Below are positions 10,116 to 43,409 of a stretch of DNA of 64,000 nucleotides, piece by piece. Under the pieces are notes generated by a model that was not told where the DNA came from, searched no databases, and was given only the letters and a program-made list of their open reading frames with translations. The position numbers and the translations under genes are program-made. Within the stretch, counting starts at the first letter, position 1; every line of letters starts with the position of its first letter. The stretch is from a virus (taxonomy: Duplodnaviria; Heunggongvirae; Uroviricota; Caudoviricetes): the IMG/VR virus record IMGVR_UViG_3300043399_001190; one strand, given 5' to 3'.

Positions 10116-10865
10116 ATGGCTGCACAACAAGGTTTTCAATATGAAGTGAACGCCGCCAATGTTTTGAAACCTTTAGGATTGGTACCAAAAACATTTGTGC
10201 CAGCCGGTGCGGGCCACGATCAACCCGATTTAATGCTGGAATATAAAAAAATTAAGGCAGGTTGTGAATTAAAAATTACAGCAGCATCAGCCGGTTCTTT
10301 GGTTTTAAAATATGATTCGAAGGACAAAAAGAACCCCTGGAAATTTGGTGACATAAAGAAAGATGATGATGAAAAAATATTCATAAAGGAATTGGCAGAA
10401 GAAGTTGGCCTTTTTGATATTATCAAAAAGGAATGGAAAGAAATACCCTTTAAAAGAGATAAAGACCTTTTATGGGAATCGACAGCAGGAAAACTAACTA
10501 ATCAACAAAGATACGAAAGAGATAGGGACACATTTCCTGATATACGCGGTGAAATAAAAGCAGAAAAAATTGAACAATATTACAACAAAAAAGACACATA
10601 TTATGTAAATGTGGGTACACACGGCTTTTACATGATGGGAAAAAAGAATCCATTAAAATTGAAGAATGTACCTACATTCGCATCAGCAGCAAAAGCCACA
10701 TATCGAGCGAGAGTTCAATATAAAGGAGGAGGTAATTATCAATTTACTTTTGAGATGCAATTTTCTATTCCTGCTGCCAAAAAATCAAAATTTAATATTG
10801 CACCAGTTGACGGTAAAACCGTCAACATAAAAAAAGATCAATTAAATTTAACCTGTTTCATTTAA
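10116..10865 (+). CDS. hypothetical protein; possible PD-(D/E)xK nuclease-like motif (QPDLMLEYKK)
   Basis: ORF track; weak motif PD..EYK only. Confidence 0.4.
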   Translation: MAAQQGFQYEVNAANVLKPLGLVPKTFVPAGAGHDQPDLMLEYKKIKAGCELKITAASAGSLVLKYDSKDKKNPWKFGDIKKDDDEKIFIKELAEEVGLFDIIKKEWKEIPFKRDKDLLWESTAGKLTNQQRYERDRDTFPDIRGEIKAEKIEQYYNKKDTYYVNVGTHGFYMMGKKNPLKLKNVPTFASAAKATYRARVQYKGGGNYQFTFEMQFSIPAAKKSKFNIAPVDGKTVNIKKDQLNLTCFI

Positions 10866-10866
10866 T

Positions 10867-11148
10867 ATGCCATTAGACCTAAACATAGAAAAAATTCTCA
10901 AAGAATTTGATGAAGACGACGACTTCGGTTTTTCTGCCGTTTCTGAAGTTGAGTACAATAAAGTTATTAATGAATCTGCCGAAACGGCAGAAGCATACAA
11001 AGCTAAATTGGCTGAAGTTGAAAAACTTATCATACCCTTCTTAACCAAACTTTTGAAGACAGCCGACAAAGAATATATATACTGGCCAAATAGAAAACCA
11101 GCAATCGAAAAACAAATTGAAAAGATATTGAAACTGACTCGGAGTTAA
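10867..11148 (+). CDS. small acidic hypothetical protein
   Basis: ORF track, tight spacing. Confidence 0.4.
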   Translation: MPLDLNIEKILKEFDEDDDFGFSAVSEVEYNKVINESAETAEAYKAKLAEVEKLIIPFLTKLLKTADKEYIYWPNRKPAIEKQIEKILKLTRS

Positions 11149-11149
11149 T

Positions 11150-11881
11150 ATGAATCCTTTGGTGACGGTCATAACGCCAACTACGGCAAGTGACCAATTG
11201 CATGATGTATTGAAATCAATAGATAAACAAACATATCAAAACATTCAACACTTGGTTGTTGTAGATGGTTTTGACAAGTATGGCGTAAAAGCCACACAAA
11301 TAATGGAAGGCGCAAAACGATCCACTGCTTTTGCACTTCCTCACAATACCGGTTATGACCAATACAACGGTCATAGAATATATGGTGCAATGTCATATAT
11401 TGCAGAAGGTGAGTTCCTCTGCTTTCTGGATCAAGACAACTGGTACGAAGATACACACATAGAGTCTCTGGTTGAAGTAATTCGCCAAGGAAATCAATGG
11501 GCATATTCTCTAAGAAAAATTGTTTCACAAGAAGGAACATTCATTTGTAATGATGATTGTGAATCTCTTGGTAAATGGAAATCTATTCTAAATGACAATT
11601 TTGTGGACGTTAATTGTTTCATGATTCCTAAAATGGCAGCAATTGCATTTTCACCATACTGGTATCGTAGAGCTAGACACCCACAAGAACAACCAGAAGT
11701 TGATAGAATTTTATCGGCATTTATGATGCAAAATTTTAAAAAATTTGACACAAATGGTCAATATAGTGTAAACTATCGTGTAGCAAGTAGAGCAGATTCT
11801 GTACAAGATGTATTCTTCATTAAAGGTAATGAAGTGATGAAACAAAATATGAATGGAGAATTTCCGTGGCGAAAGACTTAA
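11150..11881 (+). CDS. glycosyltransferase family 2-like
   Basis: N-term VTVITPTTASDQLHDVLKSIDKQTY...VVVDGFD and DQDN (DxD) motifs typical of GT2. Confidence 0.55.
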   Translation: MNPLVTVITPTTASDQLHDVLKSIDKQTYQNIQHLVVVDGFDKYGVKATQIMEGAKRSTAFALPHNTGYDQYNGHRIYGAMSYIAEGEFLCFLDQDNWYEDTHIESLVEVIRQGNQWAYSLRKIVSQEGTFICNDDCESLGKWKSILNDNFVDVNCFMIPKMAAIAFSPYWYRRARHPQEQPEVDRILSAFMMQNFKKFDTNGQYSVNYRVASRADSVQDVFFIKGNEVMKQNMNGEFPWRKT

Positions 11882-12744
11882 TTATAGGTGCATATACAAA
11901 TTATGAATTCAATTTATTGAAACCTTGGATTTATTCCATCAAACAAACCGACTTCGATGGTGATATTGTTTTAATTGCCATTGATCCAGACGAAAACACC
12001 GTAAAACAAATAGAAGATGCTGGTGTAATAGTAGTTAAGGCTAGAAACGAACAAAAAATGAGAATTCATATGTTGCGTTTCTTGTACATATACAATTATC
12101 TAAAACACACAGATTATCGTTTCGTTATCACGACAGATGTTCGTGATGTTATCTTTCAGAACAATCCGACAAAATATCTTTACACAACATTTGGTAGCAA
12201 ATCAAAAGGTATCATTGCACAATCTGAGGCAATTAAAATTAAAGATGAAGCCTGGAATCGTGATAATATCATTAAAAATTTTGGAGAATATTTTTACAAT
12301 GATGTAAAGGACAATGAAGTATATAATGTTGGTCTGCTTGCTGGAACTGCCGAATATGTTAAAGATTTATGTTTTGCTTTGTTTCAAATGTCAAGCAATC
12401 GTCCAGATTGGGTCGCCGACCAGGCAGCATACAATATGTTATTGAGTTATAAACCCTGGTCCGATATTGCAATAAAACTAAAGCTTGAAGATGGTTGGGC
12501 TTTGAATGCACACGTAACAAACAAGCCAGATCAAATGCAAGAATTTGGTCCTTATTTGTTGGAAGAAAGACCGTATATGAAAGATGGTGTGGTTTTTAAT
12601 GCACAAGGAAAACCATTTACGATTGTACACCAGTATGATAGGGTTCCAGAGTGGACTATTTATTATATGGAAAAATTTCAATTTTCTATCAAATCGGACA
12701 CCAATACCGGCAGTTCACCTAAATACTTCATCTACAATACATAA
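11866..12744 (+). CDS. hypothetical protein of the glycan-modification cluster
   Basis: ORF track; overlaps neighbours. Confidence 0.4.
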   Translation: MAKDLIIGAYTNYEFNLLKPWIYSIKQTDFDGDIVLIAIDPDENTVKQIEDAGVIVVKARNEQKMRIHMLRFLYIYNYLKHTDYRFVITTDVRDVIFQNNPTKYLYTTFGSKSKGIIAQSEAIKIKDEAWNRDNIIKNFGEYFYNDVKDNEVYNVGLLAGTAEYVKDLCFALFQMSSNRPDWVADQAAYNMLLSYKPWSDIAIKLKLEDGWALNAHVTNKPDQMQEFGPYLLEERPYMKDGVVFNAQGKPFTIVHQYDRVPEWTIYYMEKFQFSIKSDTNTGSSPKYFIYNT

Positions 12745-12762
12745 TTTTATAAATATGAGGCT

Positions 12763-13599
12763 TTGAATATGAGCAAAATTTCTATCGTAACCGCTTTCTA
12801 TGACATTGGCCGAAGTGATTGGTCGATGGATGTACACAAAAATGGTGGTCCACTTCCACACTATTTACAAAGATCGACAGAAAAATATATCGAGCATTTC
12901 AAACGAATGTGCGAGATTGATACTGAAATCATTGTTTACACATCCTCTGATCTAGCATCAAAACTCGGTGAGATTTCACCGAATGTTAAAGTTGTCGAAT
13001 ATGACTACTTTAATATACATAAAGAACTCCGTGACAAGATTGAAGAAATACAAACATCACCTGAGTTCATAAAAAGAATAAATCCATATCAAGTAAGAAA
13101 TCCCGAATACTGGTCAAAAGACTATGTTGGTGTAACATCACTAAAGGCTTTCTATGTGAGTGATGCTTTTGAGCGTGGGTTAATCACCAATGAATGGGCT
13201 GCCTGGGTTGACTTTGGTTATTGTCGTGATGCAGAACATATTCCAAAAACCAAAAAATGGGAATATGATTTCACACCAGGTAAAATGCACTTCTTTAACT
13301 ATCGTGATCCGGACATTAATAAGAAACTTGAACAAATCCAGCTTGCGGTATTAAACAATATCGTCTATATCATCGGCGGTGTTTTTGTTGGTGAAAAAAC
13401 ACAATGGAAGATGCTTGAAGATAGTATGAGCAAATCAATGGAATTTTTAATGTACAACAAGCTCGTTGATGATGACCAAGGTCTTCTATTGAGTTCATAT
13501 TTTATGAATCCAGAAATGTATGAATTGCATAAAATGCCATTAGTTGCTCCAATTGAAGATGTTAGATCCATAATTAAGAAGTTTAATAATCATGAATAA
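12763..13599 (+). CDS. putative LPS/polysaccharide biosynthesis protein (HtrL/YibB-like N-terminus IVTAFYDIGR)
   Basis: motif recall only; TATAAATA-like sequence tttataaata at 12745-12755 just upstream. Confidence 0.35.
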   Translation: MNMSKISIVTAFYDIGRSDWSMDVHKNGGPLPHYLQRSTEKYIEHFKRMCEIDTEIIVYTSSDLASKLGEISPNVKVVEYDYFNIHKELRDKIEEIQTSPEFIKRINPYQVRNPEYWSKDYVGVTSLKAFYVSDAFERGLITNEWAAWVDFGYCRDAEHIPKTKKWEYDFTPGKMHFFNYRDPDINKKLEQIQLAVLNNIVYIIGGVFVGEKTQWKMLEDSMSKSMEFLMYNKLVDDDQGLLLSSYFMNPEMYELHKMPLVAPIEDVRSIIKKFNNHE

Positions 13600-14977
13600 A
13601 TTAGTAATTTTTGACCTTGATGGTGTATTAATTGATTCTAGAGAAATACACTATGATGCATTAAATGATGCTCTGAGAAAAGTGGGTGAACAATATGTCA
13701 TTTCTAGAGAAGAACATTTAAGCTTATACGATGGTTTAAATACGACTAGAAAACTTAAGATGTTGACCGAAAAAAAAGGTTTACCTGTTTCTGAATATGA
13801 TAAGATTTGGTCTGACAAGCAAGAAGCAACATTCACTATTGTTAGAGGTTTCAATAAAGAATATTGGTTACAAACCATGTTCAGAAAAATAAAAGCAAGA
13901 GGATATAAAATTGCTGTTGCTTCGAATTCAATTCGTGAGACAGTAAAATTGTCTCTTATAAGTATTGGGCTAATTGAAGAAGTTGATTATTTTGTTAGCA
14001 ATGAGGATGTAAGTAGAGCAAAGCCATATCCCGAAATGTATTGGAAATGCATGACAGCTTTGAATGCTTTACCCAAAAATACTATCATTGTCGAAGATAG
14101 TCACATCGGCCGACAAGGTGCTTTAGATTCTGGCGCACATTTATTACCAGTTGAAAACGCACAAGAAGTTAACAGTGAAAATATGATGCAAAGGATTTAT
14201 GACCTTATGAATACAATTGAAGGAACAAGTAAAAAATCTCTACCTTGGAGAGATAACAAACTAAACGTTTTGATTCCAATGGCTGGCGCAGGCTCACGTT
14301 TTTCTACTGCCGGTTATACTTTTCCAAAACCACTTATTGAAGTTCGCGGTAAACCAATGATTCAAGTTGTTGTCGAAAACTTGAATATTGAAGCTAACTA
14401 CATTTTCTTAGTACAAAAAGAACACTATGAAAAATATAACTTGAAGTATCTTCTGAATCTAATTGCTCCAAATTGTAAGATTGTGCAAGTAGATGGTCTA
14501 ACAGAAGGTGCAGCTTGTACGACTTTATTGGCAAAAGAATATATTGATAATGATGCGCCTCTAGTCATGGCAAATTCGGATCAATACGTTGATTGGAATT
14601 CTAATGAATGCATGTACGCTTTCTCAGCAGATTCTATTGATGGTGGCATTCTAACATTTGAAGCAACGCATCCGAAATGGTCTTATGCAAAACTTGATGA
14701 GAATGGATTTGTTTCTGAAGTTGCAGAGAAGAAAGTTATTTCCAATAATGCAACAGTTGGCATTTATTACTGGCGTCACGGTTCAGACTATGTTAAATAT
14801 GCTGAACAGATGATTAAAAAAGATATTCGCGTTAACAATGAATTTTATGTTTGTCCCGTTTTCAATGAAGCGATTGGTGACGGTAAAAAAATTCGTGTTA
14901 AAAATGTTGAAGCTATGTGGGGTATTGGAACCCCAGAAGATTTAAATTATTTTTTGAGCAATCACAAGGAAGATTAA
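13592..14977 (+). CDS. bifunctional HAD-family phosphatase/phosphomutase (N) + sugar-phosphate nucleotidyltransferase (C)
   Basis: HAD motif I IFDLDGVLIDS at N-term; nucleotidyltransferase signature LIPMAGAGSRF in C-half. Confidence 0.55.
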   Translation: MNKLVIFDLDGVLIDSREIHYDALNDALRKVGEQYVISREEHLSLYDGLNTTRKLKMLTEKKGLPVSEYDKIWSDKQEATFTIVRGFNKEYWLQTMFRKIKARGYKIAVASNSIRETVKLSLISIGLIEEVDYFVSNEDVSRAKPYPEMYWKCMTALNALPKNTIIVEDSHIGRQGALDSGAHLLPVENAQEVNSENMMQRIYDLMNTIEGTSKKSLPWRDNKLNVLIPMAGAGSRFSTAGYTFPKPLIEVRGKPMIQVVVENLNIEANYIFLVQKEHYEKYNLKYLLNLIAPNCKIVQVDGLTEGAACTTLLAKEYIDNDAPLVMANSDQYVDWNSNECMYAFSADSIDGGILTFEATHPKWSYAKLDENGFVSEVAEKKVISNNATVGIYYWRHGSDYVKYAEQMIKKDIRVNNEFYVCPVFNEAIGDGKKIRVKNVEAMWGIGTPEDLNYFLSNHKED

Positions 14978-14978
14978 A

Positions 14979-15593
14979 ATGAAATATTTTTTTGATGTTG
15001 GAGCACACTGGGGACAAGACTCTCTACATATTGCAAAAGATGACCCAGATACTACAGTTATTGCTTTTGAGCCAACGCCGGAGTTAGCTTCTAGATTGAG
15101 GTGGATTGCCAAAGAAGGGAAATTTGAAAGCCGCTATAAAGTATATCAGCAAGCAATTTCAGATTTTGATGGTGAATCAGATTTTCATCTTGTTGTCGGT
15201 GATACCGGTTCGGCCTCTCTTAACGAATTCAATGACAATCTACATCAAACTTGGCCAGGTAGAACAGACTTTGTTGTTAGAGGCTCAATCAAAGTAAATG
15301 TATACAGACTCGAAACGTGGCTGCCTTTGTTTGCACCGGAAGTAACAGAAATTGAACATTTACATATTGATGCTCAAGGCTCCGATTTAGCAGTTTTAAG
15401 AGGTCTAGGTTCCAAACTCTCGATGGTGAAATCTGGTGTCGTTGAAGTGCCACAAGCTGCTGCTTTACGACTGTATAAGGGTCAACACACGAAAGAAGAA
15501 ACTCTCCAATTTTTGGAAGAGAATGGTTTCGAAGTTACAAATGTGACTTCACAGGTTAATGAGGATAATATTTTCTTTCAGAGAAAAAAATGA
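14979..15593 (+). CDS. FkbM-family SAM-dependent methyltransferase-like
   Basis: N-term FFDVGAHWGQDS resembles FkbM motif (IDVGAN.G); 204 aa. Confidence 0.5.
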   Translation: MKYFFDVGAHWGQDSLHIAKDDPDTTVIAFEPTPELASRLRWIAKEGKFESRYKVYQQAISDFDGESDFHLVVGDTGSASLNEFNDNLHQTWPGRTDFVVRGSIKVNVYRLETWLPLFAPEVTEIEHLHIDAQGSDLAVLRGLGSKLSMVKSGVVEVPQAAALRLYKGQHTKEETLQFLEENGFEVTNVTSQVNEDNIFFQRKK

Positions 15594-16303
15594 AAGTTGC
15601 ATTGTTATTAACAGGTCATATGCGGTGTTGGAATCAAGTATTTCCAAATACCAAAAACCATATCATGGACAAATATAATCCAGATGTTTTCATCGAGACA
15701 TGGGATTCTGAAGCATACTGGGATCCACATTCTTCAAAGGGTATAACCGAAGGTGGTCCCAATTTGAATGTTGATGCGATTCAACGTACTTACAAACCAG
15801 TATACATGAATGTGGAAAAATACGAAGAATTTGAAGAAAATTTTTCTCAACGAGCTAAGGAATTTACTAATTTCTATCATGTACCGAAAAACCAAATTTC
15901 CATGTGGTTTAAAGTAGGTCGTGGTATGCTCGCTGTTGAAGAGCATATGATGTTGACAGGCAAAACATATGATGTTATAATTCGTATGCGTCCAGATTTG
16001 TACTTCAATGAACCTTTACCAGATTTTGATCCGAACAAATTTTATACCTTGGGATTTAGAAATCATATGGGTCAAGGAACCTCCGATATGATTCAAGTTG
16101 GAAACTTCTTTACCATGAGCTTATTCTGTAAAGTTCTTTATCATTTACCACATCTTTATAAGGAAACCGGTCTTTTGTGTCCGCATGTTATTTCAGAACA
16201 CTTCATTAAAAGATTGGGATTACCCTGGCAAGAATTTATGGTTAACAAAACAATAATGCACACACCTCTAGGCGAATATAAACACAAGAGTCTGTACCAA
16301 TGA
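15590..16303 (+). CDS. hypothetical protein, paralogue of 16751..17458
   Basis: MKVALLLTGHMR / KYNPDVFIETWD aligns with MRLALCLSGQPR / KYTVDVFFHTWV. Confidence 0.45.
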   Translation: MKVALLLTGHMRCWNQVFPNTKNHIMDKYNPDVFIETWDSEAYWDPHSSKGITEGGPNLNVDAIQRTYKPVYMNVEKYEEFEENFSQRAKEFTNFYHVPKNQISMWFKVGRGMLAVEEHMMLTGKTYDVIIRMRPDLYFNEPLPDFDPNKFYTLGFRNHMGQGTSDMIQVGNFFTMSLFCKVLYHLPHLYKETGLLCPHVISEHFIKRLGLPWQEFMVNKTIMHTPLGEYKHKSLYQ

Positions 16304-16794
16304 TACTAATTGCACACAGAGGTCTTTTCAGTGGGCCTGATATCGAAAAAGAGAATACACCAAAACAAATCGAACTTGCATTGGAAAAAAATTACGATTG
16401 TGAAGTTGATGTTTGGTACGTTAAAAATGAATGGTGGCTAGGTCATGACAAACCACAATATAAAGTTGATTGGAACTTTATTGGAAAGGAAGGTTTGTGG
16501 CTGCACTGTAAGAATCTAGATGCTTTATATGAACTGACTTACAGCCCATTCAAGTACACTTATTTCTGGCATCAGGAAGACGATTTTACTTTAACTTCGA
16601 ATCATTACATCTGGACTTATCCTGGAAAATCTCTAACCAGAAATTCAATTTCTGTGCAACCAGAAAGAACGGAAGAAATGTGGACATGGACCAAAAGTTG
16701 TTCACTAGGTATAGCTGGTGTTTGTACAAAATATGTTGAAAGATTTGTGAATGAGATTAGCACTTTGTCTATCGGGACAACCGAGAAGCTATAA
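16300..16794 (+). CDS. glycerophosphodiester phosphodiesterase (GDPD)-like domain protein, short
   Basis: IAHRG...ENT...E.D.W..K...LGHD matches GDPD signature. Confidence 0.5.
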   Translation: MILIAHRGLFSGPDIEKENTPKQIELALEKNYDCEVDVWYVKNEWWLGHDKPQYKVDWNFIGKEGLWLHCKNLDALYELTYSPFKYTYFWHQEDDFTLTSNHYIWTYPGKSLTRNSISVQPERTEEMWTWTKSCSLGIAGVCTKYVERFVNEISTLSIGTTEKL

Positions 16795-17458
16795 AAAAGC
16801 TTTTGAATTTATAAGTAGAAATTTACTTGAAAAATATACTGTTGACGTTTTCTTTCATACGTGGGTGAACGTACCGGAGAATAGTTATATTTTTGACGAA
16901 CTGCAACAACTTTATAGACCTGTTATTGCTTCTTATGACTATTCTTTACCGTCAAATGTAAATTCACACATGTTGGTTCCAAATGGCTCACATCCAGCCA
17001 ATTTTTGCACATCAATGTTTTACTCTATTAATGTTGCAAATGAATATAGGGTCAAGCATGAAGTTTTTGGTGCATTTCGTTATGATTTTGTTATACGAAG
17101 TAGATTTGATTTTGCGCTAAACAAAGTGATTGATTTTGGTTCTCTGGAAACAAATAAACTCTATGTTCCAAAAGATGTTGAAGGACCGGCACTTTTAAAT
17201 GACCAGTTTGCCATAGCTGATTCTGATACGATGAATGTCTATGCGTCAACGTTCTTATATCTGCAAAAATTGTATAATTCTGGAGTTCCACTTTGTGGGC
17301 ATGAAATGTTGCAGGAACAACTGACAAGAAATTCTACGCCAGTTGAACGTATCGACCTTGACCATCCTTTCGTTGATGGTGATTTTAATAGAGGAAGACA
17401 CTCTCTGATACGTGAAGATATGTCAAAATGGGTCGATATTAAAATTTGGGGCTACTAA
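16751..17458 (+). CDS. hypothetical protein, paralogue of 15590..16303
   Basis: see paralogue; overlaps upstream gene by 44 nt. Confidence 0.45.
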   Translation: MRLALCLSGQPRSYKKAFEFISRNLLEKYTVDVFFHTWVNVPENSYIFDELQQLYRPVIASYDYSLPSNVNSHMLVPNGSHPANFCTSMFYSINVANEYRVKHEVFGAFRYDFVIRSRFDFALNKVIDFGSLETNKLYVPKDVEGPALLNDQFAIADSDTMNVYASTFLYLQKLYNSGVPLCGHEMLQEQLTRNSTPVERIDLDHPFVDGDFNRGRHSLIREDMSKWVDIKIWGY

Positions 17459-17494: not shown

Positions 17495-18688
17495 ATGAAA
17501 CAATTTTTGCAGTATTTGCAGGAAGAACTGGACCCGGAAGAGGGTGCCAGTAGGCAAATAAAACACCTAACACATATCGAAGATCGTATTTTGCAAACCG
17601 GAGACAAAGGTGCAAAACACGCAATTTCGTCATTGGAAACTGCGGCTGAACACATCAGTCAAGGTAAAAAGTCATCGCAACTGACAACAAAATATGACGG
17701 TTCACCAGCAATCGTTTACGGTCATCACCCAGAAAACGGTAAGTTTTTTGTTGCTTCCAAGTCAGCTTTCAACAAAACACCAAAAATCAACTATACGCCT
17801 GCCGATATAGAAAAAAACCATGGCCATGCTCCTGGCTTGGTTGAGAAGTTGAAAGCAGCACTGAAACATTTACCGAAAGTTGCACCAGAAAAAGGTGTTT
17901 ACCAGGGTGATATGATGTTCTCGGATGTAGACAAGAAACACTCAAAAGATGCCGTTTCTTTCAGACCAAATCCCTCTGGTATAACTTACACTGCACACGG
18001 TCAACATGCAACAAAAGCTAAAAAGGCCAAAATTGGTGTAGTAACTCATTTATCATATGAAGGCAAAAATTCTGCTAGTTTAAATGCATCGCACGAAGTT
18101 GACCATGAAAATTTCGGGCAACATTCTGATGTATTCTCGGTTGACCCAAGAATGGACACTTCTAAAGTACATTTCGGTCCAAAAGACAGAGCAGAATTCA
18201 AAAAACACATTGCCGCAGCTAGATCAGTTCACGATACGCACGGTGACGACATGTATGCAGGAACAAAAGCACATCAAGGTATAGGTGGTCATTTAGAGAC
18301 TTACATCAATCACACTGTTAGGAGTGATGAAGAACCTAATCATGAAAATTTTAAAAAGTGGTTGGAAAATAAGAAAAATAAAGAAATTGAAAAATTGAAG
18401 GTTGAAAAAAATAAAAAGTCCAAACAGCAAGAGTTATCAGCGGAATTAGATAAGATTGAAAGAAATAAAAAGCACTATAATAATGTTTTCAAAATGCATG
18501 GTCATTTACAAAAAGCAAAAAATGTGCTGATTAATGTTCTAAATCAACATCAAGAATTTCAACATGAACACGCTGGTGAACCAGCAAATCCTGAAGGATA
18601 CGTTTTCCATCACGGAAAAGAATCGGATAAATTTGTAAACAGAAGCGAATTCTCAAAAAGAAATTTTGCCGGAATAAGAAACATATGA
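17495..18688 (+). CDS. putative covalent nucleotidyltransferase (KxDG motif, ligase-like) with T4 CTS-like N-terminus
   Basis: N-term MKQFLQYLQE; TTKYDGSPAIVYG (KxDG), later PEGYVFHHGK; assignment by motif only. Confidence 0.45.
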   Translation: MKQFLQYLQEELDPEEGASRQIKHLTHIEDRILQTGDKGAKHAISSLETAAEHISQGKKSSQLTTKYDGSPAIVYGHHPENGKFFVASKSAFNKTPKINYTPADIEKNHGHAPGLVEKLKAALKHLPKVAPEKGVYQGDMMFSDVDKKHSKDAVSFRPNPSGITYTAHGQHATKAKKAKIGVVTHLSYEGKNSASLNASHEVDHENFGQHSDVFSVDPRMDTSKVHFGPKDRAEFKKHIAAARSVHDTHGDDMYAGTKAHQGIGGHLETYINHTVRSDEEPNHENFKKWLENKKNKEIEKLKVEKNKKSKQQELSAELDKIERNKKHYNNVFKMHGHLQKAKNVLINVLNQHQEFQHEHAGEPANPEGYVFHHGKESDKFVNRSEFSKRNFAGIRNI

Positions 18689-20586
18689 AAAAATTTCTAG
18701 AAAAAGTGGAAGACGATTTGCAAACCAAAAGCCCAGTCGTAATGGCTTTTGGTAGAATGAATCCGCCCACAGTTGGGCATGAGAAACTTGTAAACAGAGT
18801 TAAAGAAATAGCTAAAGACTATAATGCTCCACACCATGTTATAATTTCACATTCTGTTGATGCAAACAAAAATCCACTTGATGCTAAAGCAAAACTGAAA
18901 CACGCCCAGAGATTTTTTCCTGGCACAAATTTATCAACTTCCAGTAAAGAACTTCCAACTTTCTTGCAACACGCTGCAAAGTTAAATGCAGCAGGACATG
19001 ACCATTTAATTATGGTTGCAGGCTCGGATAGAATTCCAGAATATGAAAAGAAGTTGCATGATTATAATGGACCAAAAGATAAAAATCCAAAAGCACTTTT
19101 CAATTTCAAAAAAATTGAGTTGAAATCTGCGGGGCATCGTGATCCTGACTCTGAAGGTGTTGAAGGTATGTCTGCCTCAAAAATGAGGGAACATGCAAAA
19201 AATAATGATTTTCATAGCTTCAAGATGGGTGTACCTGAGCATGTGCCCGAGAAACACGCCAGAGAACTTTTCAGAGATGTTAGAAAAGGTATGGGTATAC
19301 ATGAAGATTCTAGTCATGGTTTGTTCAAAGCACTCTTCATTTGTGGTGGTCCCGGTTCCGGTAAAGATATCATCATACGTGAAGCAATTGCTGAAAGAAA
19401 CGCGGTCGAACTGAATTCAACTCTTGCAATTAATATTCTCAACGACAAACATAAGTTACATGAACAGTCTAAAGATTTCAGAAGAGAAGCTATTCGCAAA
19501 AGAATGCCGTTGATTGTAAATGGCACAACGAATGAACAATTCAATATTATTGAAATTAAAAATGAGTTGGAAGAACTCGGTTACGAAACAATGATGATTT
19601 TCGTAAACACGACAAACGAAGCTTCGAAAAAAAGAAACAATGGACATGAAAGAGTTATGTCCGAATCTGTTCGTCAAGAAAGATGGGATAAGACTCAACT
19701 TGTAGCTGAAAAAATGAATCAAATTTTTACAAAATATCTGGAATTTGATAACTCTTTGGACTTGAATGAAGCTACAATTTTCGAAATGTCGGAGAAAGAA
19801 GAAGATATAGCAATCATTTATGAAATGTCCAACTGGTTTTTCGACACTCAAGTAAACAACGAAATTGCAGAAACTTGGTTAGAAAAAAATAGAAAAAAGG
19901 ATATAAACCAAGTATTCGAATCCTTTATTAAAAATCCTTTGAAAGGTAGAAAAAATGTTTCAGAAATTAAAGCAAATCGCAAGACTATTTTTGCCGAAAG
20001 TGGATGCAAATGCAAAACATCCTTTGGATATTCAGAAGTATCAGGTAGAGGAAAACAAAAGCTCACAGACAACATCTGCCCAAGTTGCGAGCTTACTAGA
20101 AAAGCCGGTAGAGAAGACGATGTTAGAGACGGAGACACCAAATCAAACATTAGTTACACATTCAGAACCTACCACGAAGGAACAACCCCAACCATCCAAG
20201 TCAACCCAGAGCCCAAAGAAACGCGCTTCCAGCAAGACAACGACAAGCAAAAAAACAGGAAACAAAAAGCCGCACCAAGCCAAAGCGGCAAAGTAATGAA
20301 CACTGCTGGTGTTAGCCCAGAATATGATACACGCGCTCAAGGTTCTGTTTACCCAATGTCTGGTCTTGGAAATGTTACATATAGAGAACAGAAAGAGAAT
20401 AAATATACCAGTACCGCAGAGGTAACACGCAAATCGTTTGTAAAATTCAGAAAAGAATCTATTGATTCTCCAAGTGTCGAAATGGGAGTTACTGGCGGAG
20501 AATATGGTCCTTCAAACAAAGAACCGTTGGAAACTCCAGGCGATAAAGTATTGAATCAAAATTCAAATAAAAAGAAGAAAAAATGA
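18685..20586 (+). CDS. HxGH nucleotidyltransferase (NMNAT/cytidylyltransferase-like) fused to P-loop domain (GGPGSGK) and long K/T-rich low-complexity tail; CTS-like N-terminus
   Basis: MKKFLEKVED N-term; FGRMNPPTVGHEKL; LFICGGPGSGKDIII; tail rich in K,T,S,N. Confidence 0.5.
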   Translation: MKKFLEKVEDDLQTKSPVVMAFGRMNPPTVGHEKLVNRVKEIAKDYNAPHHVIISHSVDANKNPLDAKAKLKHAQRFFPGTNLSTSSKELPTFLQHAAKLNAAGHDHLIMVAGSDRIPEYEKKLHDYNGPKDKNPKALFNFKKIELKSAGHRDPDSEGVEGMSASKMREHAKNNDFHSFKMGVPEHVPEKHARELFRDVRKGMGIHEDSSHGLFKALFICGGPGSGKDIIIREAIAERNAVELNSTLAINILNDKHKLHEQSKDFRREAIRKRMPLIVNGTTNEQFNIIEIKNELEELGYETMMIFVNTTNEASKKRNNGHERVMSESVRQERWDKTQLVAEKMNQIFTKYLEFDNSLDLNEATIFEMSEKEEDIAIIYEMSNWFFDTQVNNEIAETWLEKNRKKDINQVFESFIKNPLKGRKNVSEIKANRKTIFAESGCKCKTSFGYSEVSGRGKQKLTDNICPSCELTRKAGREDDVRDGDTKSNISYTFRTYHEGTTPTIQVNPEPKETRFQQDNDKQKNRKQKAAPSQSGKVMNTAGVSPEYDTRAQGSVYPMSGLGNVTYREQKENKYTSTAEVTRKSFVKFRKESIDSPSVEMGVTGGEYGPSNKEPLETPGDKVLNQNSNKKKKK

Positions 20587-21056
20587 AAACGTTTCTACAA
20601 TATTCAAAAGAGCGAGACAAGGAAGAGCTTGAAAGACAAATGCGCCATCATTTCGAAATGGCTCAAAGAAGTCTTGACACGGCTCAAGAATTGCAAAGTA
20701 AAGGTGACATGGATGGTTTTCACACATTTATGGCAAAGCACCACCATTTTCAAACTCAAGGTGAGTATTTAAAAACTCACTTGAATGAGGCTTCTCCAGC
20801 GTGGCAAAGAAAAGCTGGTAAAAGCCCAACTGGCGGTCTGAATCGCAAAGGTATTGCTTCTTATCGTCGTGAAAATCCTGGTTCAAAACTGTCAATGGCA
20901 GTGACAACACCTCCTTCAAAGTTGAAGCCAGGAAGCAAAGCTGCAAAAAGAAGAAAATCCTTCTGTGCAAGAATGGGTGGTATGCCTGGTCCAATGAAGG
21001 ATGAAAAGGGTCGCCCAACTAGAAAAGCTTTATCGTTACGTAAATGGAACTGCTAA
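20583..21056 (+). CDS. basic protein with CTS-like N-terminus (candidate internal head protein)
   Basis: MKTFLQYSKE N-term; K/R-rich C-terminus. Confidence 0.45.
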   Translation: MKTFLQYSKERDKEELERQMRHHFEMAQRSLDTAQELQSKGDMDGFHTFMAKHHHFQTQGEYLKTHLNEASPAWQRKAGKSPTGGLNRKGIASYRRENPGSKLSMAVTTPPSKLKPGSKAAKRRKSFCARMGGMPGPMKDEKGRPTRKALSLRKWNC

Positions 21057-21071
21057 TAAACGGAGAAAAAA

Positions 21072-21863
21072 ATGTTCAATAATATTTTCAAGAAAAATGA
21101 TCCTGTTGCTGATATGATCGCTCAAATTGCTGAAGCCGATTACAAAGCAAAAATGGAAGAGCTTAAAGGTCAACAGCATAAGATTGACAAAAACAAGAAC
21201 AACAAGATTGATGCACACGACTTTGCAATTCTTCGTGGCGAAAAGAAAGCCATGAAAAAAGAAGAAGTTGATAGTGTTGAAGAAGCTAACAATCCATTTG
21301 ATGTTAAGAACTACAAGAGTCAATTGAAATCAAAACCAGGTGAAAAAGCTGGCTTTGACTCCAAGAAAACATCTACTGGTACTGTTTATTCAAGAAAGCC
21401 AGTCAAAGATGAGCCAATGAAAAAGGAAGAAATTGACCCGAACAAGACAACAGTTGACACGTTAAATGGTCGTGAAAAAGATTCTAAGAATCCTTTTCTT
21501 TCGAAGAAAGTGTTCATGGATGTACCAGATAATGTAAAAGAAGAAACTGAACAAATTGATGAGTTGAAAAAAACGACTGTCAAATCTTATCTAAAGAAAA
21601 AAGTTGATACTCTCCCAGGAAAAGATCCAAAGAAAGACCAGGAAAGCATGATGAGAGCGCATCATCGTGTTACTGGTGTTAAACCAACTTCTGAAGAAGT
21701 TGAAAAAATCGACGAGCGTGAACTTACTAAAGGTGAAACCGCAGAAAAAGAACGTATCGTTAAAGGAATGAAAAAGAGTTTTGCTGGTTTCAAACAGCGT
21801 TACGGTGATAAAGCAAAATCAGTTATGTATGCTACCGCTACAAAGGCAGCTAAAAAGGATTGA
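21072..21863 (+). CDS. K/E-rich protein with TEQIDELKK motif (candidate scaffold/internal protein)
   Basis: shares (V/T)EQIDE(L) motif with next gene. Confidence 0.5.
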   Translation: MFNNIFKKNDPVADMIAQIAEADYKAKMEELKGQQHKIDKNKNNKIDAHDFAILRGEKKAMKKEEVDSVEEANNPFDVKNYKSQLKSKPGEKAGFDSKKTSTGTVYSRKPVKDEPMKKEEIDPNKTTVDTLNGREKDSKNPFLSKKVFMDVPDNVKEETEQIDELKKTTVKSYLKKKVDTLPGKDPKKDQESMMRAHHRVTGVKPTSEEVEKIDERELTKGETAEKERIVKGMKKSFAGFKQRYGDKAKSVMYATATKAAKKD

Positions 21864-23722
21864 TAATGAGTAAAGCAGGCAATCTCATTAAAAACATGGT
21901 GAAAGCGAAAAAAGAATCTGTCATGGGTAAATTGGCCAACGGTGACGATCCGATGGAACCATGGTCGAAAAGATTCGATGCTCCAATCAAAGAAGAAGAA
22001 TTGAACGAAGATACCTGGTTATATCGTTACATACGTTCTCTTGGTTGGGACCCGGAACACATGACATTTGCAGAACGTTCAAAATACGCTCGTTCGAATG
22101 CATTTAAACACTGGAAACAGTCACACATGAATCGTAGACCGGGTGAAACTGCCACAATGGAGAAACCAGTTCAGGAAGAAATTCTCGACGAAGCTGGAAC
22201 TGGCTTGCTCATGTCATATATTAAATCCAAGGGTCTTGATCCAAGAACAATGGACGGAAATCAAAAAGCCGCATATTCTAAATCCAGTGAATTTAGAATG
22301 TTTAAAATGCGTCATATGAAAGAAGTTTCGGGGATGGGTGAACGTGGTGATGATTGGAATGAAGAAAAGAAACCTGTGAAAGAGGCTGTCGATAAAGCAG
22401 ACACTGTTACAGTAGACATTCCATTGATGATTCGTCTTCTTGAATATGCTCGTGAAGATGCCAAAACCGATATGGATCTACACAAAGTTGTGGAAAATTT
22501 AATCAATATGCGTTCAGAAGGAACACTTTCAATGGATCATTACGATTCTATCGTAAATGTTAAGTCCATGAAAGAAGAGGTTGAACAAATTGATGAACTT
22601 GATAAAGCGACACTGACCAGCTATGCAACGAAAGCGAGAGCAGATGCTGAAAAGCTAACTAAGCAAGGTGATGCTGCATCAAAAAGAAGTTCCACGAAAT
22701 CTTTACAGACTGCTTATGACAAATATAAAAAAGCAGCAAAACGCACGATGGGTGCCGGTAGTGCAGAGTCGAAAGCTCGTCTAAAAGAAGACGAGCAATT
22801 AGACGAACTAAAAAAGATTCCTGATAATATGGATGCTGACGACCATATTACCCGTGAAGATTTGCGTCAGTGGTTTAGTAAAACACACCCAGAGGGTGAT
22901 TGGAAAAGAATCAATTCAAAAGGTGAAGTTGCAGGTCCTTGTGCCAGAGAGCCTGGTGAACCAAAACCTAAGTGCATGTCAAAAGAGAAACGCGCACAAT
23001 TGAGCAAGAGTGAACGTGCGGCCGCAGTTGCAGCAAAACGTAAACATGATCCTGTTGCTGATAGACCAGGTAAAGGCGGTAAGCCTATTAACGTTTCAAA
23101 TTACGGTAAAGGTAAACTGAGTGAAGAAGGTGTCGATGAAGCATGTTGGGATACACACAAACAAGAGGGAATGAAAAAGAAGGGCGATAGAATGGTCCCA
23201 AATTGTGTTCCTAAAAATGAATCTGTCGAACAAATTGATGAAAAAAACAAACCAACAAATCCAGGTTTGTGGTCTAGAGCAAAAGCAATGGCTCGTTCCA
23301 AGTTTGATGTTTACCCATCAGCTTATGCAAATGGTTGGGCAGCAAAATGGTACAAATCCAAAGGCGGCGGATGGAAGTCGGTGAAAGAAGATATTGTTCA
23401 AGAAGGTATTTACGGTATCGAGGATTCACCTTTGTCTGCGACAAATTCTGTTAAAGCTATGGAATCTTCTAACAGAAAAAAAGAAATGTCGAAATCTGCT
23501 AGAATGATTAAATCAATCTACAAAAAGAAAAATGTCAAAGAGACAATGTACGATTGGGAAAAGACTGAAAAGGGTGGTAAAGTTGTTGATGAGCCAACCG
23601 CAAAAGTTATTATGAAAGGTGGTACAACTATGACTGGAAAACCACGAGACACTATCGAAATAGAGCCTGTCTTAAAAACAAAACTTAACAGTCCGGCTGG
23701 TATGAAATCTAGCTTGCAATAA
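21860..23722 (+). CDS. 620-aa K/E-rich protein with internal duplications and three (V)EQIDE motifs (candidate scaffold/internal protein)
   Basis: repeats YIRSLGWDPEHMT..HWKQSHM / YIKSKGLDPRTMD..MFKMRHM; EEVEQIDELDK, ESVEQIDEKNK. Confidence 0.5.
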   Translation: MIMSKAGNLIKNMVKAKKESVMGKLANGDDPMEPWSKRFDAPIKEEELNEDTWLYRYIRSLGWDPEHMTFAERSKYARSNAFKHWKQSHMNRRPGETATMEKPVQEEILDEAGTGLLMSYIKSKGLDPRTMDGNQKAAYSKSSEFRMFKMRHMKEVSGMGERGDDWNEEKKPVKEAVDKADTVTVDIPLMIRLLEYAREDAKTDMDLHKVVENLINMRSEGTLSMDHYDSIVNVKSMKEEVEQIDELDKATLTSYATKARADAEKLTKQGDAASKRSSTKSLQTAYDKYKKAAKRTMGAGSAESKARLKEDEQLDELKKIPDNMDADDHITREDLRQWFSKTHPEGDWKRINSKGEVAGPCAREPGEPKPKCMSKEKRAQLSKSERAAAVAAKRKHDPVADRPGKGGKPINVSNYGKGKLSEEGVDEACWDTHKQEGMKKKGDRMVPNCVPKNESVEQIDEKNKPTNPGLWSRAKAMARSKFDVYPSAYANGWAAKWYKSKGGGWKSVKEDIVQEGIYGIEDSPLSATNSVKAMESSNRKKEMSKSARMIKSIYKKKNVKETMYDWEKTEKGGKVVDEPTAKVIMKGGTTMTGKPRDTIEIEPVLKTKLNSPAGMKSSLQ

Positions 23723-23754
23723 ATAACAGTATATTCTTTTAAGGAGAAACAGTA

Positions 23755-24309
23755 ATGTCAACAGCTTTTTGGACAATGACGGACGCTAACACTGGTGTTC
23801 CGCTTTTCGCACCAACAGCACTAAAACTTGCACCAACCCGTGCAAACGCAAATGTAATCTATGCTAACTCAAATACCGCACAAGCTTTTAGTGCAGCCGT
23901 TGGTGTTTGGGGTGTAGATACACAGGAAGCAACAAACACCCAAGTTACGCCAGCCGCAACAAAAATGGCTCACGCTGGTTGGGTTCAAAGAACCGCAGGT
24001 ATGGGTGGTATTGTTACAATTTCTGCTAACACCAATGCTTATAGCCCAGACGGTAATATTTTTGTTACTTTCGCAAATGGTGGTACAGGTGCAACACCTG
24101 CAAACGCTACAGTTGTTACCAATGGTGCAAAACTAATCACAGGTATCACTTTGAATGAACCAGGTTTGTATCTAACAACACCAACCGCCACAGTTGTAAA
24201 TAGTAACGTTGCTATCACAATCACTATGGGTGGTCGTGCTGGTAGAACACAATACGAAACTCTTGTTGCAACTGGTAGCATCACCGGCAACGGCGCAGTT
24301 ATTATCTAA
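23755..24309 (+). CDS. highly codon-biased Ala/Thr/Gly/Asn-rich protein (likely abundant virion/late protein)
   Basis: strong RBS AAGGAGAAACAGTAATG; GC and codon use shifted (ggt/gca/act); AATAAATA (late-promoter-like) at ~23721; hairpin after stop. Confidence 0.5.
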   Translation: MSTAFWTMTDANTGVPLFAPTALKLAPTRANANVIYANSNTAQAFSAAVGVWGVDTQEATNTQVTPAATKMAHAGWVQRTAGMGGIVTISANTNAYSPDGNIFVTFANGGTGATPANATVVTNGAKLITGITLNEPGLYLTTPTATVVNSNVAITITMGGRAGRTQYETLVATGSITGNGAVII

Positions 24310-24313
24310 TAAA

Positions 24314-24332
24314 AGGGCGGATTTTCCGCCCT
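24314..24332 (+). terminator. hairpin AGGGCGG-atttt-CCGCCCT directly after stop of 23755..24309
   Basis: 7-bp GC-rich stem; weak U-tract on plus strand (TATCATTAT). Confidence 0.45.
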
Positions 24333-24338
24333 ATCATT

Positions 24339-24725
24339 ATGTTTGATGATTTGACTGAAGACAATTTTATTATGTATGCTATGAAGGCATACTATTCGCC
24401 ACACTGTATAATGAGTGAATTTGAGAGCGACCTAAAAAGAACAAAATATCTAAAAAGACTTTTCAGGCGCTACAAAATAACGAAAGCATTAAAAGAAAGA
24501 TTAATCTTAAACCACATAATACTTCTTTATAATGTTTTTGGAGTCGAGGCGGCAACAAGAATATTGTTCTTCAGAATTGATGAAAAAGATTATGATGTTC
24601 TTAAAACTTTTTTGATTTATCTAAATTATATGCCAGATAAAATAAAAGGTATAGGTGGAAAAGATATTTTATCTTCTGATATACTAATTGATATGCATGT
24701 TGCAGATATACTAAGAAAAATATGA
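24339..24725 (+). CDS. hypothetical protein
   Basis: ORF track. Confidence 0.4.
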   Translation: MFDDLTEDNFIMYAMKAYYSPHCIMSEFESDLKRTKYLKRLFRRYKITKALKERLILNHIILLYNVFGVEAATRILFFRIDEKDYDVLKTFLIYLNYMPDKIKGIGGKDILSSDILIDMHVADILRKI

Positions 24726-24907
24726 AATCATTCAAACAATTTATTTTAGAAGATGGTATGGTGGGTTCTTCCGGACCAACAAATGTTGTAAGCACTGGTG
24801 CGATTGCTGGAACGGGGGAAAAAGGTGGTGAACCAGGTGTGCGTTTAAAACGTAAGCGTGCTGTTATAGTTCAACCAATGCAAAAACGAAAACCACCAAA
24901 GATGTAA
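24722..24907 (+). CDS. small basic protein with CTS-like N-terminus (IPI-like internal protein candidate)
   Basis: MKSFKQFILED N-term; Gly-rich middle, KRKRAV..KRKPPKM basic tail. Confidence 0.4.
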   Translation: MKSFKQFILEDGMVGSSGPTNVVSTGAIAGTGEKGGEPGVRLKRKRAVIVQPMQKRKPPKM

Positions 24908-41661: not shown

Positions 41662-42080
41662 AAACGATTATTGCGGGTTCCAGAGACTTCAATGATTTCG
41701 ATTACATGAAAGCATACCTTGCTACGATACCACCATGGATAGAAATCACTGAGGTCGTTTCCGGATGCGCCCAAGGTGCAGATACGCTAGGAGAGAAATG
41801 GGCAGAACTCAAAAGAATTCCAGTAAAACGCTTTCCAGCAGAATGGGAAAGACTAGGTAAGAGAGCAGGTCCAATAAGAAACGCAGAGATGGGAATCTAT
41901 GCAGAAGGGCTCATTGCTTTTTGGGACGGTAAATCCAGAGGTACACAACACATGATACTGTTCATGCAGCAGAATAATAAGTGGACCTATGTGGTACGTA
42001 CAGATATACCCTGGTGTGGTAAGTATGAAAACCGAAGCCCCGTGTTAAACAATGTAGAGTATACACAAGAGAGATTATGA
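41658..42080 (+). CDS. DUF2493 / SLOG-family (YspA-related) protein
   Basis: GSRDF..EVVSGCAQGADTLGEKWA..IPVKRFPAEWE..GKRAGPIRNAEM matches DUF2493 consensus recalled from memory. Confidence 0.65.
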   Translation: MKTIIAGSRDFNDFDYMKAYLATIPPWIEITEVVSGCAQGADTLGEKWAELKRIPVKRFPAEWERLGKRAGPIRNAEMGIYAEGLIAFWDGKSRGTQHMILFMQQNNKWTYVVRTDIPWCGKYENRSPVLNNVEYTQERL

Positions 42081-42265
42081 ACTACGTAGAATCATTCTTA
42101 ACCATATCAATATACCAACTGAACCTATTCTCATTTATGTTAGGTATGGTATATACCCTATGTAATGTGCGCTGGGGTAACCAGTCAAAACTCTGGATGC
42201 ATGTAGTGATTTACACTATGTTCGTAGCATTGTATTATTTTGCGAAGAGTAATGGTTACGTATAA
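42077..42265 (+). CDS. small hydrophobic protein
   Basis: ORF track; last plus-strand gene before GC-rich cassette. Confidence 0.4.
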   Translation: MNYVESFLTISIYQLNLFSFMLGMVYTLCNVRWGNQSKLWMHVVIYTMFVALYYFAKSNGYV

Positions 42266-42440
42266 ATTTCGAAACTCCTCTGGAACCTCCTGGAAAAAAT
42301 TTTGAGGATGTGCTAGATAGAAAACTCGAAAATGTGCTGGGGCCTCCAGAAAATAAATTTTAGAAAAAAAGAGTTTGGGCCATAGGCGAAAATTACTTAC
42401 ATAGCGTTATTTTTAGCACACTGCTGCCATATTTTTAGAG

Positions 42441-42464
42441 CCAAAAAAGGGCGCCGAAGCGCCC
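42441..42464 (-). terminator. rho-independent terminator for the minus-strand cassette (GGGCGC-TTCG-GCGCCC + TTTTTTGG on minus strand)
   Basis: plus strand ccaaaaaagggcgccgaagcgccc; U-tract only on minus strand. Confidence 0.75.
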
Positions 42465-42486
42465 CTAAATCACTGCCAGCCCCAAC

Positions 42487-42585
42487 TTAAACCACTGCCC
42501 TCCACACCATCAGGTCCAGAGCAAGCACAACAGCCGCAGCCATACCAACCACCACGAAACCGATCATTTCTGCTTTAGTATACAT
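42487..42585 (-). CDS. 32-aa hydrophobic peptide MYTKAEMIGFVVVGMAAAVVLALDLMVWRAVV
   Basis: AAGGAG RBS 6 nt upstream on minus strand; single TM; last gene before terminator. Confidence 0.45.
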   Translation of the reverse strand: MYTKAEMIGFVVVGMAAAVVLALDLMVWRAVV

Positions 42586-42596
42586 TTGTTTACTCC

Positions 42597-42818
42597 TTAG
42601 GCGATTTCTTTACGAATTTGGGACTCTTGCAATTCAGCCTGACGCTTGGCTGCGGTGCTGAGGTCTTCAGCGAGGAAAACGAGGTCATCAAAGGCCTCGC
42701 GGGCAATCTGGCGGTCGTGGGCGTGTTCAGACTTTTCCAGATCACGGGTGGCATGGAACTTGACCAGAGCCTCGGCGTAACGGATAGCGGCTTGCTCAAC
42801 GGTGTGGTTCAGAATCAT
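42597..42818 (-). CDS. small helical protein (73 aa)
   Basis: ORF track; AAGGAG RBS; promoter copy A upstream. Confidence 0.55.
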   Translation of the reverse strand: MILNHTVEQAAIRYAEALVKFHATRDLEKSEHAHDRQIAREAFDDLVFLAEDLSTAAKRQAELQESQIRKEIA

Positions 42819-42845
42819 TTGGTGCTCCTTTGTTTCAGTGGTTGG

Positions 42846-42873
42846 ATTATGGCGGATCTGGTAGGAATGGCAA
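42846..42873 (-). promoter_or_regulatory. cassette promoter copy A (TTGCCA-16-CATAAT, minus strand)
   Basis: revcomp of tggattatggcggatctggtaggaatggcaa. Confidence 0.6.
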
Positions 42874-42909
42874 CTGTATACTTTAGTATTCCACCGGAGT
42901 GGTCAACCA

Positions 42910-43091: not shown

Positions 43092-43118
43092 CGTTTCCTT
43101 ATCTACTATGGAATGGAT

Positions 43119-43146: not shown

Positions 43147-43175
43147 ACTCCGGTATTGTTGACCGGAGTGGTGGA

Positions 43176-43382: not shown

Positions 43383-43409
43383 CGTGTGCTCCTTCGAATC
43401 AATGGTTGG

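Follow-up and report, generated by a model that had tools for sequence, protein, structure and literature searches.

The locus studied here raises the question of whether a marine T4-like phage encodes an enzyme of the ligase type and carries it in its head. The window, the whole stretch of 64,000 nucleotides of viral DNA that was analysed, encodes gp43, UvsX, gp41, a sugar/methyl-transferase island, an endolysin, a primase, ThyX and NrdAB, and represents that part of the genome of an uncultured T4-like marine myovirus which serves replication and nucleotide metabolism; megablast of the 10-30 kb portion of the window against 50,697 phage records found no near-identical relative, and the lineage is therefore considered uncultured. 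An ORF on the + strand (17495..18688) begins with ATG and encodes 397 amino acids, exactly at the coordinates of the initial annotation, which had pointed out three elements of its product: a K-x-D-G resembling motif I of ligases (TTKYDGSPAIVYG, residues 64-76, nt 17684-17722), a C-terminal segment resembling motif IV (PEGYVFHHGK, residues 366-375, nt 18590-18619), and an N-terminus (MKQFLQYLQEE) resembling the capsid-targeting tag (CTS) of T4 internal proteins. We read this product as a putative ligase-type (lysine-nucleotidylating) nucleotidyltransferase.

The protein is a member of a large family to which no function has been assigned. It matches Pfam DUF6267 (PF19782) over its full length (E 1.3e-93; score 314.8 bits, gathering cut-off 27; residues 23-392 aligned to positions 2-373 of the 376-position model) as well as PHROG 455 (E 5e-85), both of which are labelled "unknown function", and its homologues S-PM2d138, PHM2_162 and SSM1_189 carry the label T4-GC 71. 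A word-indexed search returned 5,563 homologues, the best of them 92% identical, and an exhaustive profile search of a library clustered at 50% returned 2,951 clusters, 1,156 of them at E <= 1e-30. The 468 sequenced phage records that match, all at less than 60% identity, belong almost entirely to T4-like cyanophages, with additional Pelagibacter, Methylophilales, Pseudoalteromonas, Vibrio and Stenotrophomonas phages; among the matches listed, these homologues are annotated as "hypothetical" or not at all. Few unannotated genes of marine T4-like phages are as widespread as DUF6267 (T4-GC 71), which most cyanomyoviruses carry. Cellular genomes were searched with two family-derived patterns taken from a narrower alignment, the 99-sequence alignment described below being too diverse, and the 185,579 species genomes yielded only four loci, each of them on a short contig of a marine MAG and probably mis-binned phage DNA; within the limited reach of this two-pattern search, the family looks phage-restricted. 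The literature searched, which did not cover the account of RNA repair systems by Burroughs & Aravind (2016), contains no earlier description: "DUF6267" is not mentioned anywhere in it, and the jumbo-phage survey of Iyer et al. does not mention the family.

The K-x-D-G element alone carries no information. The 76 + strand ORFs of the window that reach 90 aa or more hold four bare K-x-D-G sites, versus 5.3 +/- 2.2 expected from residue shuffles, which is chance level. The three sites outside the DUF6267 gene (ORFs 34025, 35400 and 49365, encoding an RNase H/FEN-type exonuclease, an SPFH-type lipoprotein and a 96-aa hypothetical protein, respectively) were dismissed as chance. Because the bare motif is uninformative in this window, the case rests on conservation and structure, and what raises the element of the DUF6267 ORF above chance is its conservation across the family. 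The initial annotation had kept in view that KYDG might be fortuitous; its frequency does not exceed chance, yet K66 and G69 are invariant in 99 sequences.

Those 99 sequences are 25-88% identical to the query, with a mean column identity of 29%, and only H24, K66, G69, K89, D139, E367, G368 and N390 are invariant in their alignment; a further set (D68, Q137, G138, H185, K342, K379 and R383) is shared by 95 or more of them. Judged by the kinds of residue conserved, the pattern is that of a polar active site rather than of a structural core. It bears directly on the idea that the protein has lost catalysis and serves as a structural or internal component of the head, with a ligase-like fold retained and KYDG functionally fortuitous. 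Such a protein would fit a gene that lies in a cluster with virion products in S-SM1 and S-CREM2 and whose sequence similarity to active ligases is undetectable, but the residues invariant over ~2,950 clusters are of the polar, nucleotide-pocket type (K, D, G, D, E, G, K, R) and not of the hydrophobic core, inactive paralogues normally lose exactly such residues, and DUF6267 is not among the proteins detected in cyanophage virions. We consider a dead head protein very improbable.

The candidate elements are arranged along the protein in the order I-Ia-III-IIIa-IV-V, all encoded on the + strand. They are preceded by the pre-motif K-H-L-x-H-x-E-D (17561..17584; family consensus KHLxHxED; H24 in 99/99 sequences, H27 in 98/99, E29 in 93/99 and D30 in 89/99), which possibly belongs to the active site. 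Candidate motif I, TTKYDGSPAIVYG (17684..17722; consensus (T/S)xK(W/Y/F)DG(A/S)P), bears out the motif I-like reading of the K-x-D-G element, with K66 and G69 in 99/99 sequences, D68 in 98/99 and P71 in 97/99. K66 stands at the end of strand 59-66 of the predicted model, followed by a turn and strand 72-77; sequence and predicted secondary structure together place an invariant lysine on a beta-hairpin loop, as in motif I of ligases, and K66 is predicted to be the nucleotidyl-accepting residue, the counterpart of the ligase lysine. Candidate motif Ia, FFVASKSAFNK (17744..17776; consensus FFV(G/A)(T/S)KSxFNK), is proposed from spacing and position, with the invariant K89 placed 23 residues after K66. 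Candidate motif III, VYQGDMMF (17897..17920; consensus QGDx(M/L)(F/Y)), coincides with strand 135-143 of the model and contains Q137 (98/99), G138 (95/99) and D139 (99/99); in this assignment an Asp would stand where classical ligases carry Glu. The tentatively assigned motif IIIa, FRPNPSGITY (17960..17989; consensus FxPN), contains F156 (90/99), P158 (95/99) and N159 (95/99), and the family has a further conserved strand with the consensus G(I/V)VxHTxYxG. Near the C-terminus, candidate motif IV, PEGYVFHHGK (18590..18619; consensus PEG(F/Y)V), contains E367 and G368 (99/99 each) and V370 (97/99). Candidate motif V, KFVNRSEFSKRNF (18629..18667; consensus KLV(D/N)RxEFSxxNF), contains K379 (98/99), R383 (96/99), F386 (98/99) and N390 (99/99), and has the form K-x-x-x-R versus the K-x-K of ligases. 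Assignment of a ligase-type active site makes a "hypothetical protein" accessible to simple bench experiments.

The link to the ligase/capping superfamily that the initial annotation had envisaged did not emerge at the sequence level from phmmer, HMM or hhalign comparisons. Neither phmmer nor an HMM of the 99 sequences found a ligase among PDB sequences, only low-complexity helical matches; a search of NCBIfam returned nothing, and neither did hhalign against gp30. With T4 Rnl2 as the target, either as a single sequence or as a profile of 24 sequences collected from viral contigs, hhalign gave E 0.1-0.3, which is not significant. Of the ordered candidates that follow motif I (QGD139, F156-x-P-N, PE367G-(F/Y)-V and K379-L-V-(D/N)-R383), only the IV-V block was aligned to Rnl2, again not significantly: PEGfV...KLVdRxEFS was matched with AEGYVLK...IKCKN-SKFSE, pairing E367 with E204 and K379 with K225. 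K66 was not paired with Rnl2 K35 by hhalign, even when the helical insertion was removed.

The likeness to ligases appears at the level of the fold. An AlphaFold2 model built on the 99-sequence alignment has a mean pLDDT of 93.2 and a pTM of 0.90, with disorder confined to residues 1-18, and the predicted structure contains a nucleotidyltransferase (adenylyltransferase) domain fold. Foldseek comparison of the model with the PDB found nothing significant; the matches of highest probability, themselves non-significant, are human Lig1, a tRNA ligase and the LigA adenylation domain. In structure comparison, 14 of the 15 top matches are ligases, which supports at fold level the earlier reading of the protein as a ligase-like nucleotidyltransferase: NgrRnl (8.0, with 175 residues aligned), TbREL1 (7.9), T4 Rnl2 (7.4 and 7.1), Trl1 ligase domains (7.4, 6.9 and 6.5), T4 Rnl1 (6.7), archaeal Rnl3 (6.7 and 6.5), ATP-dependent DNA ligases including those of T4, T7, Chlorella virus and human I, III and IV (5.4-6.8), and Pnkp-C (5.5). 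The remaining structural matches are helical bundles, which pair with an inserted module of ~120 residues (aa 229-349, 18179..18541, + strand) composed of five long helices, located between candidate motifs IIIa and IV and containing the near-invariant K342. The chain of the model stops 14 residues past R383, ending in a single helix (383-396), and therefore has no OB domain; neither an OB domain nor any other ligase accessory or known nucleic-acid-binding domain was found in the DUF6267 protein.

DUF6267 belongs to no described ligase family, as the signatures and accessory domains of DNA ligases, Rnl2/Rnl5 and LigA are absent from it. Compared with ATP-dependent DNA ligases of the T4 gp30 type, it lacks the OB domain, the DNA-binding domain and motif VI. 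It resembles the Rnl2/Rnl5 group (T4 Rnl2 and trypanosome REL1; Naegleria NgrRnl and Deinococcus DraRnl) at fold level without significant sequence similarity, but possesses neither the C-terminal domain of Rnl2 nor the N-terminal domain of Rnl5, and differs further in having the 120-residue helical insertion in its core and in being fused or linked to an HxGH nucleotidyltransferase. Of the NAD+-dependent LigA it has neither domain Ia for NMN binding nor the OB, Zn-finger, HhH and BRCT domains. The protein is best regarded as a new variant within the group of ligase-type nucleotidyltransferases.

The linked nucleotidyltransferase is encoded by the next gene (18685..20586, + strand), the start of which overlaps the stop of the ligase-like gene. 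Its product of 633 aa consists of an HxGH nucleotidyltransferase of NMNAT/PPAT-like type (aa 1-210), a P-loop kinase of the polynucleotide-kinase/PSTK/zeta type (aa 211-355) and a tail of ~280 aa with a CxC...CxxC motif. Matches of the P-loop domain are a Lichtheimia kinase (11.5), PSTK (11.0), RapZ (10.8), zeta toxin (10.6), Pnkp (10.6), Pnkp1 (9.8) and T4 Pnk (9.6), and every sequence match of the partner to NMNAT families falls below the curated cut-offs. It is distinguished from the NadR and NMNAT-Nudix enzymes of NAD+ salvage in that PPAT scores equally well for its nucleotidyltransferase domain and that its kinase is nearer to polynucleotide and tRNA kinases than to ribosylnicotinamide kinase. 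The association of the two genes extends beyond the window: in the S-PM2 clade DUF6267 and the nucleotidyltransferase are one polypeptide, PF01467 is carried by 14 of 47 long members of the DUF6267 family, and the genes for the two are overlapping or near neighbours, at most one small gene apart, in P-HM2, S-SM1, DLP6 and Melnitz. A second kinase in the window had been described earlier as a Pnk homologue at 50549; a P-loop kinase ORF is indeed present there, with weak matches to Pnkp/PSTK and to the PHROG polynucleotide kinase.

The association of a ligase-type enzyme with a polynucleotide-kinase-like domain follows the same logic as the "heal and seal" systems, T4 Pnkp/Rnl1 and Trl1. The NMNAT-like domain of the DUF6267 system has no counterpart in T4 Rnl1 and Pnkp or in Trl1, and whereas those systems combine a ligase with a polynucleotide kinase and, in Trl1, a CPDase, neither a phosphatase that heals 3' ends nor a CPDase domain was recognised here. 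A specific parallel to T4 tRNA repair, as proposed in the initial annotation, is a plausible reading by analogy and one of several. For T4 Rnl1 and Pnkp themselves, no packaging in the head is known.

The obligatory linkage or fusion to an NMNAT-like HxGH nucleotidyltransferase could also signify lysine-nucleotidyl chemistry that joins no strands, such as 5'-end adenylylation, a capping-like modification of RNA or DNA, or an NAD+-related counter-defence involving the NMNAT-like domain; the likeness to ligases would then hold at fold level only. The missing accessory nucleic-acid-binding domain, the atypical variants of motifs III and V, and conserved elements that are the family's own (HLxHxED, K342 and the C-terminal FS..NF) are consistent with such chemistry, as is the speculation of the S-CREM2 authors that virion-borne NMNAT homologues affect host NAD+ (PMC10665884). 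We regard this as unlikely, and favour strand joining by an enzyme that would be delivered to the host.

Delivery is suggested by the first ten residues of the DUF6267 protein, MKQFLQYLQE (17495..17524, + strand), a CTS-like propeptide that lies within the disordered residues 1-18 of the model and has a predicted gp21-type cleavage site at L8-Q9-E10/E11. Mutagenesis of the T4 CTS showed that the first ten residues suffice for incorporation into the head, that targeting depends on residues 4 and 7 and processing on residues 8 and 10, and that gp21 cuts after L/I-x-E (PMC9026906). T4 IPII and IPIII begin with MKTYQEFIAE and IPI with MKTFKEFTS. At the targeting positions the window protein has F4 and Y7, where T4 has Y4 and F7, and its L8-Q9-E10 fits the gp21 site (T4: I8 and E10); the CTS-like character noted earlier thus holds at each of the T4 determinant positions (F4, Y7, L8 and E10). 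The head-packaged and injected T4 proteins IPI-III and Alt share these decapeptide features (aromatic residues at 4 and 7, L/I at 8, E at 10), but their cargo is a restriction inhibitor or an ADP-ribosyltransferase, whereas here it would be a putative ligase-type enzyme and a kinase/nucleotidyltransferase.

The sequence (F/Y)-L-x-E occupies positions 7-10 in all nine of nine sequences of the window clade, and a strict CTS motif is found in 54 of 123 DUF6267 representatives, with others offset by one to three residues. DUF6267 of DLP6 begins with MMKFTQFLAE; DUF6267 of P-HM2, of S-SM1 and of the cyanophage clade of S-PM2 type has no tag. The tag is common to unrelated neighbouring proteins both in the window and in Melnitz, in which four consecutive genes are tagged, DUF6267 and the nucleotidyltransferase among them. 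In the window, the nucleotidyltransferase-kinase gene at 18685 encodes MKKFLEKVED, which differs from the CTS in having K, V and D at positions 7, 8 and 10, and the DUF6321 gene at 20583 (20583..21056, + strand; 157 aa; Pfam PF19846, E 4.8e-23) encodes MKTFLQYSKE, with S at position 8. On the evidence of a motif scan, the DUF6321 product is probably a further head-targeted protein of the same cluster.

Published virion proteomes show that tagged proteins of this locus reach the virion. The tag-bearing nucleotidyltransferase SSM1_190 (MKKFSAFLNE) was detected in purified S-SM1 virions with 25 peptide counts, together with the flanking products SSM1_188, SSM1_191 and SSM1_192, and the tag-less DUF6267 protein SSM1_189 (T4-GC 71) is absent from the list of detected proteins (PMC3037559). 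Purified virions of S-CREM2 contain the nucleotidyltransferase gp154 (MKNFSSFLTE) and the products of the next two genes (PMC10665884). The proteins listed as detected in S-SM1, S-PM2 and Syn9 virions do not include DUF6267, which carries no tag in cyanophages. Detection of the tag-bearing proteins of the locus but not of the tag-less one is as a functional CTS predicts, and by this analogy the tag-bearing DUF6267 protein of the window would be packaged in the virion.

A different role would be that of the "missing" replicative DNA ligase of T4-like phages of the cyanomyovirus type, which would belong to the replication module and seal nicks from Okazaki fragments and recombination in the cytoplasm, with the tag incidental or secondary. 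Cyanomyoviruses lack g30, and the literature has left a distant homologue possible (PMC2984593; PMC2993671); a tblastn search with gp30 agrees with its absence from cyanomyoviruses, and the placement of the DUF6267 gene beside gp43-uvsX-gp41 is in keeping with a function in replication. DLP6, however, carries both gp30 and DUF6267, and simple replacement of gp30 as the sole explanation is rejected for that reason. RNA ligases outrank DNA ligases among the structural matches, and both the kinase partner and the head-targeting tag speak for the repair of ends upon entry. We regard a replicative ligase as unlikely; the tag-less form of the family may be the long-sought cyanomyovirus ligase, and the result bears on the question, raised in the literature of 2010, of whether an unrecognised distant ligase exists in cyanomyoviruses without a gp30 homologue.

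Taken together, the fold, the active-site pattern, the partner and the tag lead us to favour, with belief and doubt about evenly balanced, a very divergent ligase-type nucleotidyltransferase that acts with a kinase/nucleotidyltransferase partner, is targeted to the head and is injected for the repair of breaks. Lys66 would be charged by a nucleotide, most probably ATP, to give covalent Lys66-AMP, and the AMP would be passed to a 5'-phosphate end that is then joined to a 3'-OH, as in the classical three-step ligase pathway. The protein would be an adenylyltransferase core alone, in which the 120-residue helical module replaces the OB and accessory domains and presumably serves to grip the nucleic acid; such a compact ligase scaffold of a single domain, with its new clamp-like insertion, could be of interest for enzyme engineering. 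The ligase-like protein and the product of the next gene would act as a unit, the kinase domain making 5'-phosphate from 5'-OH ends with the NMNAT-like nucleotidyltransferase alongside. The CTS propeptide would build the protein into the prohead core, a gp21-type protease would trim it after Glu10, and injection with the DNA would make a break-repair activity on RNA or DNA present before the expression of any phage gene; as to the substrate, we lean towards RNA. We rank an injected break-repair ligase first, followed by a replicative DNA ligase, nucleotidyl transfer without joining and an inert structural protein, in that order.

A broader proposal, which we make tentatively, is that T4-like marine phages of the window lineage inject a pre-made kit that consists of a polynucleotide ligase of a new family, a polynucleotide kinase and an NMNAT-like nucleotidyltransferase. 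If this is true, damage by nuclease defences of the host, for example anticodon nucleases, nickases or restriction, would be reversible before the phage needs translation. We know of no virion-delivered polynucleotide ligase described earlier, and this one would be the first. If the tag is functional, the T4 internal-protein strategy would extend from inhibitors and ADP-ribosyltransferases to repair enzymes, and the recurrence of "cytidylyltransferases" and kinases in cyanophage virion proteomes would be explained. Farther along the window, a + strand ORF of 61 aa (24722..24907) encodes a protein with a basic C-terminus and the N-terminus MKSFKQFILE, followed by D, with F4, F7, I8 and E10 at the CTS positions; by these features it is a candidate internal protein of the T4 type.

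Four genes within 7.4 kb of the window (17495-24907) begin with a decapeptide resembling the T4 capsid-targeting sequence (CTS): the ligase-like DUF6267 gene at 17495 (MKQFLQYLQE), its partner encoding a nucleotidyltransferase-kinase at 18685 (MKKFLEKVED), the DUF6321 gene at 20583 (MKTFLQYSKE) and a small ORF at 24722 (MKSFKQFILE). Judged by these N-termini, the region looks like a cluster of internal or ejected proteins, and a CTS-like cluster is arranged in the same way in genes 15-18 of Methylophilales phage Melnitz (L050). The small ORF (24722-24907, 61 aa) has a perfect CTS-like start (F4, F7, I8 and E10), a middle section rich in glycine and serine, and a very basic C-terminus (RLKRKRAVIVQPMQKRKPPKM); its product resembles a small internal protein of the T4 type.

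Beyond its kinase domain, the partner protein continues for about 280 further residues at its C-terminus (aa 361-633; window 19765-20586). This extension matches no family and may bind zinc or nucleic acid, as suggested by a CxC...CxxC motif (CKCKTSF...ICPSCEL) and the terminal residues NKKKKK. In Stenotrophomonas phage DLP6, the protein accompanying DUF6267 is AAY80_068 (L003 5724-7892; 722 aa), annotated as a 'cytitidyltransferase', whose C-terminus (…VIDGHHRWKA…) reads like a ParB/sulfiredoxin-type domain, whereas the third domain of the window's protein is a kinase; the HxGH nucleotidyltransferase thus seems to be a platform that carries variable add-on domains. Two genes downstream of the corresponding nucleotidyltransferase gene (gp154) of Synechococcus phage S-CREM2 lies gp156 (L049 4513-5226), a hypothetical protein that has been detected in the virion and contains a GG…D-x-D pattern (TGGNANYNYTPYSDIDLHLVV) reminiscent of Pol-beta-type nucleotidyltransferases, making it a possible further injected nucleic-acid enzyme.

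The kinase-only Pnk homologue that the initial annotation had placed at 50549 is present as a stand-alone P-loop kinase of 165 aa (50549-51046). It weakly resembles PSTK and the kinase domain of bacterial Pnkp, as well as the 'polynucleotide kinase' family PHROG 505 (E 4e-11), and would be a second candidate for an end-healing kinase in this genome.

Genes for sugar and methyl transfer form an island between gp41 and the ligase-like gene (10116-17458). They encode a GT2 glycosyltransferase, HtrL_YibB, a HAD hydrolase fused to an NTP-transferase-like domain, an FkbM methyltransferase and two DUF7796 proteins, and could serve to modify DNA or cell-surface glycans. A further region (42001-46000) has a GC content of 0.47, compared with about 0.36 elsewhere in the window, and contains overlapping long ORFs on both strands, including one of 371 aa and odd composition (43944-45059) that matches nothing in Pfam or PHROG. 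Neither Rfam nor the tRNA scan gave a hit in this region, and its only DNA-level matches are weak ones (65%) to two freshwater Caudoviricetes contigs. Both ARAGORN and Rfam (68 bits) identified one tRNA-Met (CAT) gene, which lies at the window's start (271-346).
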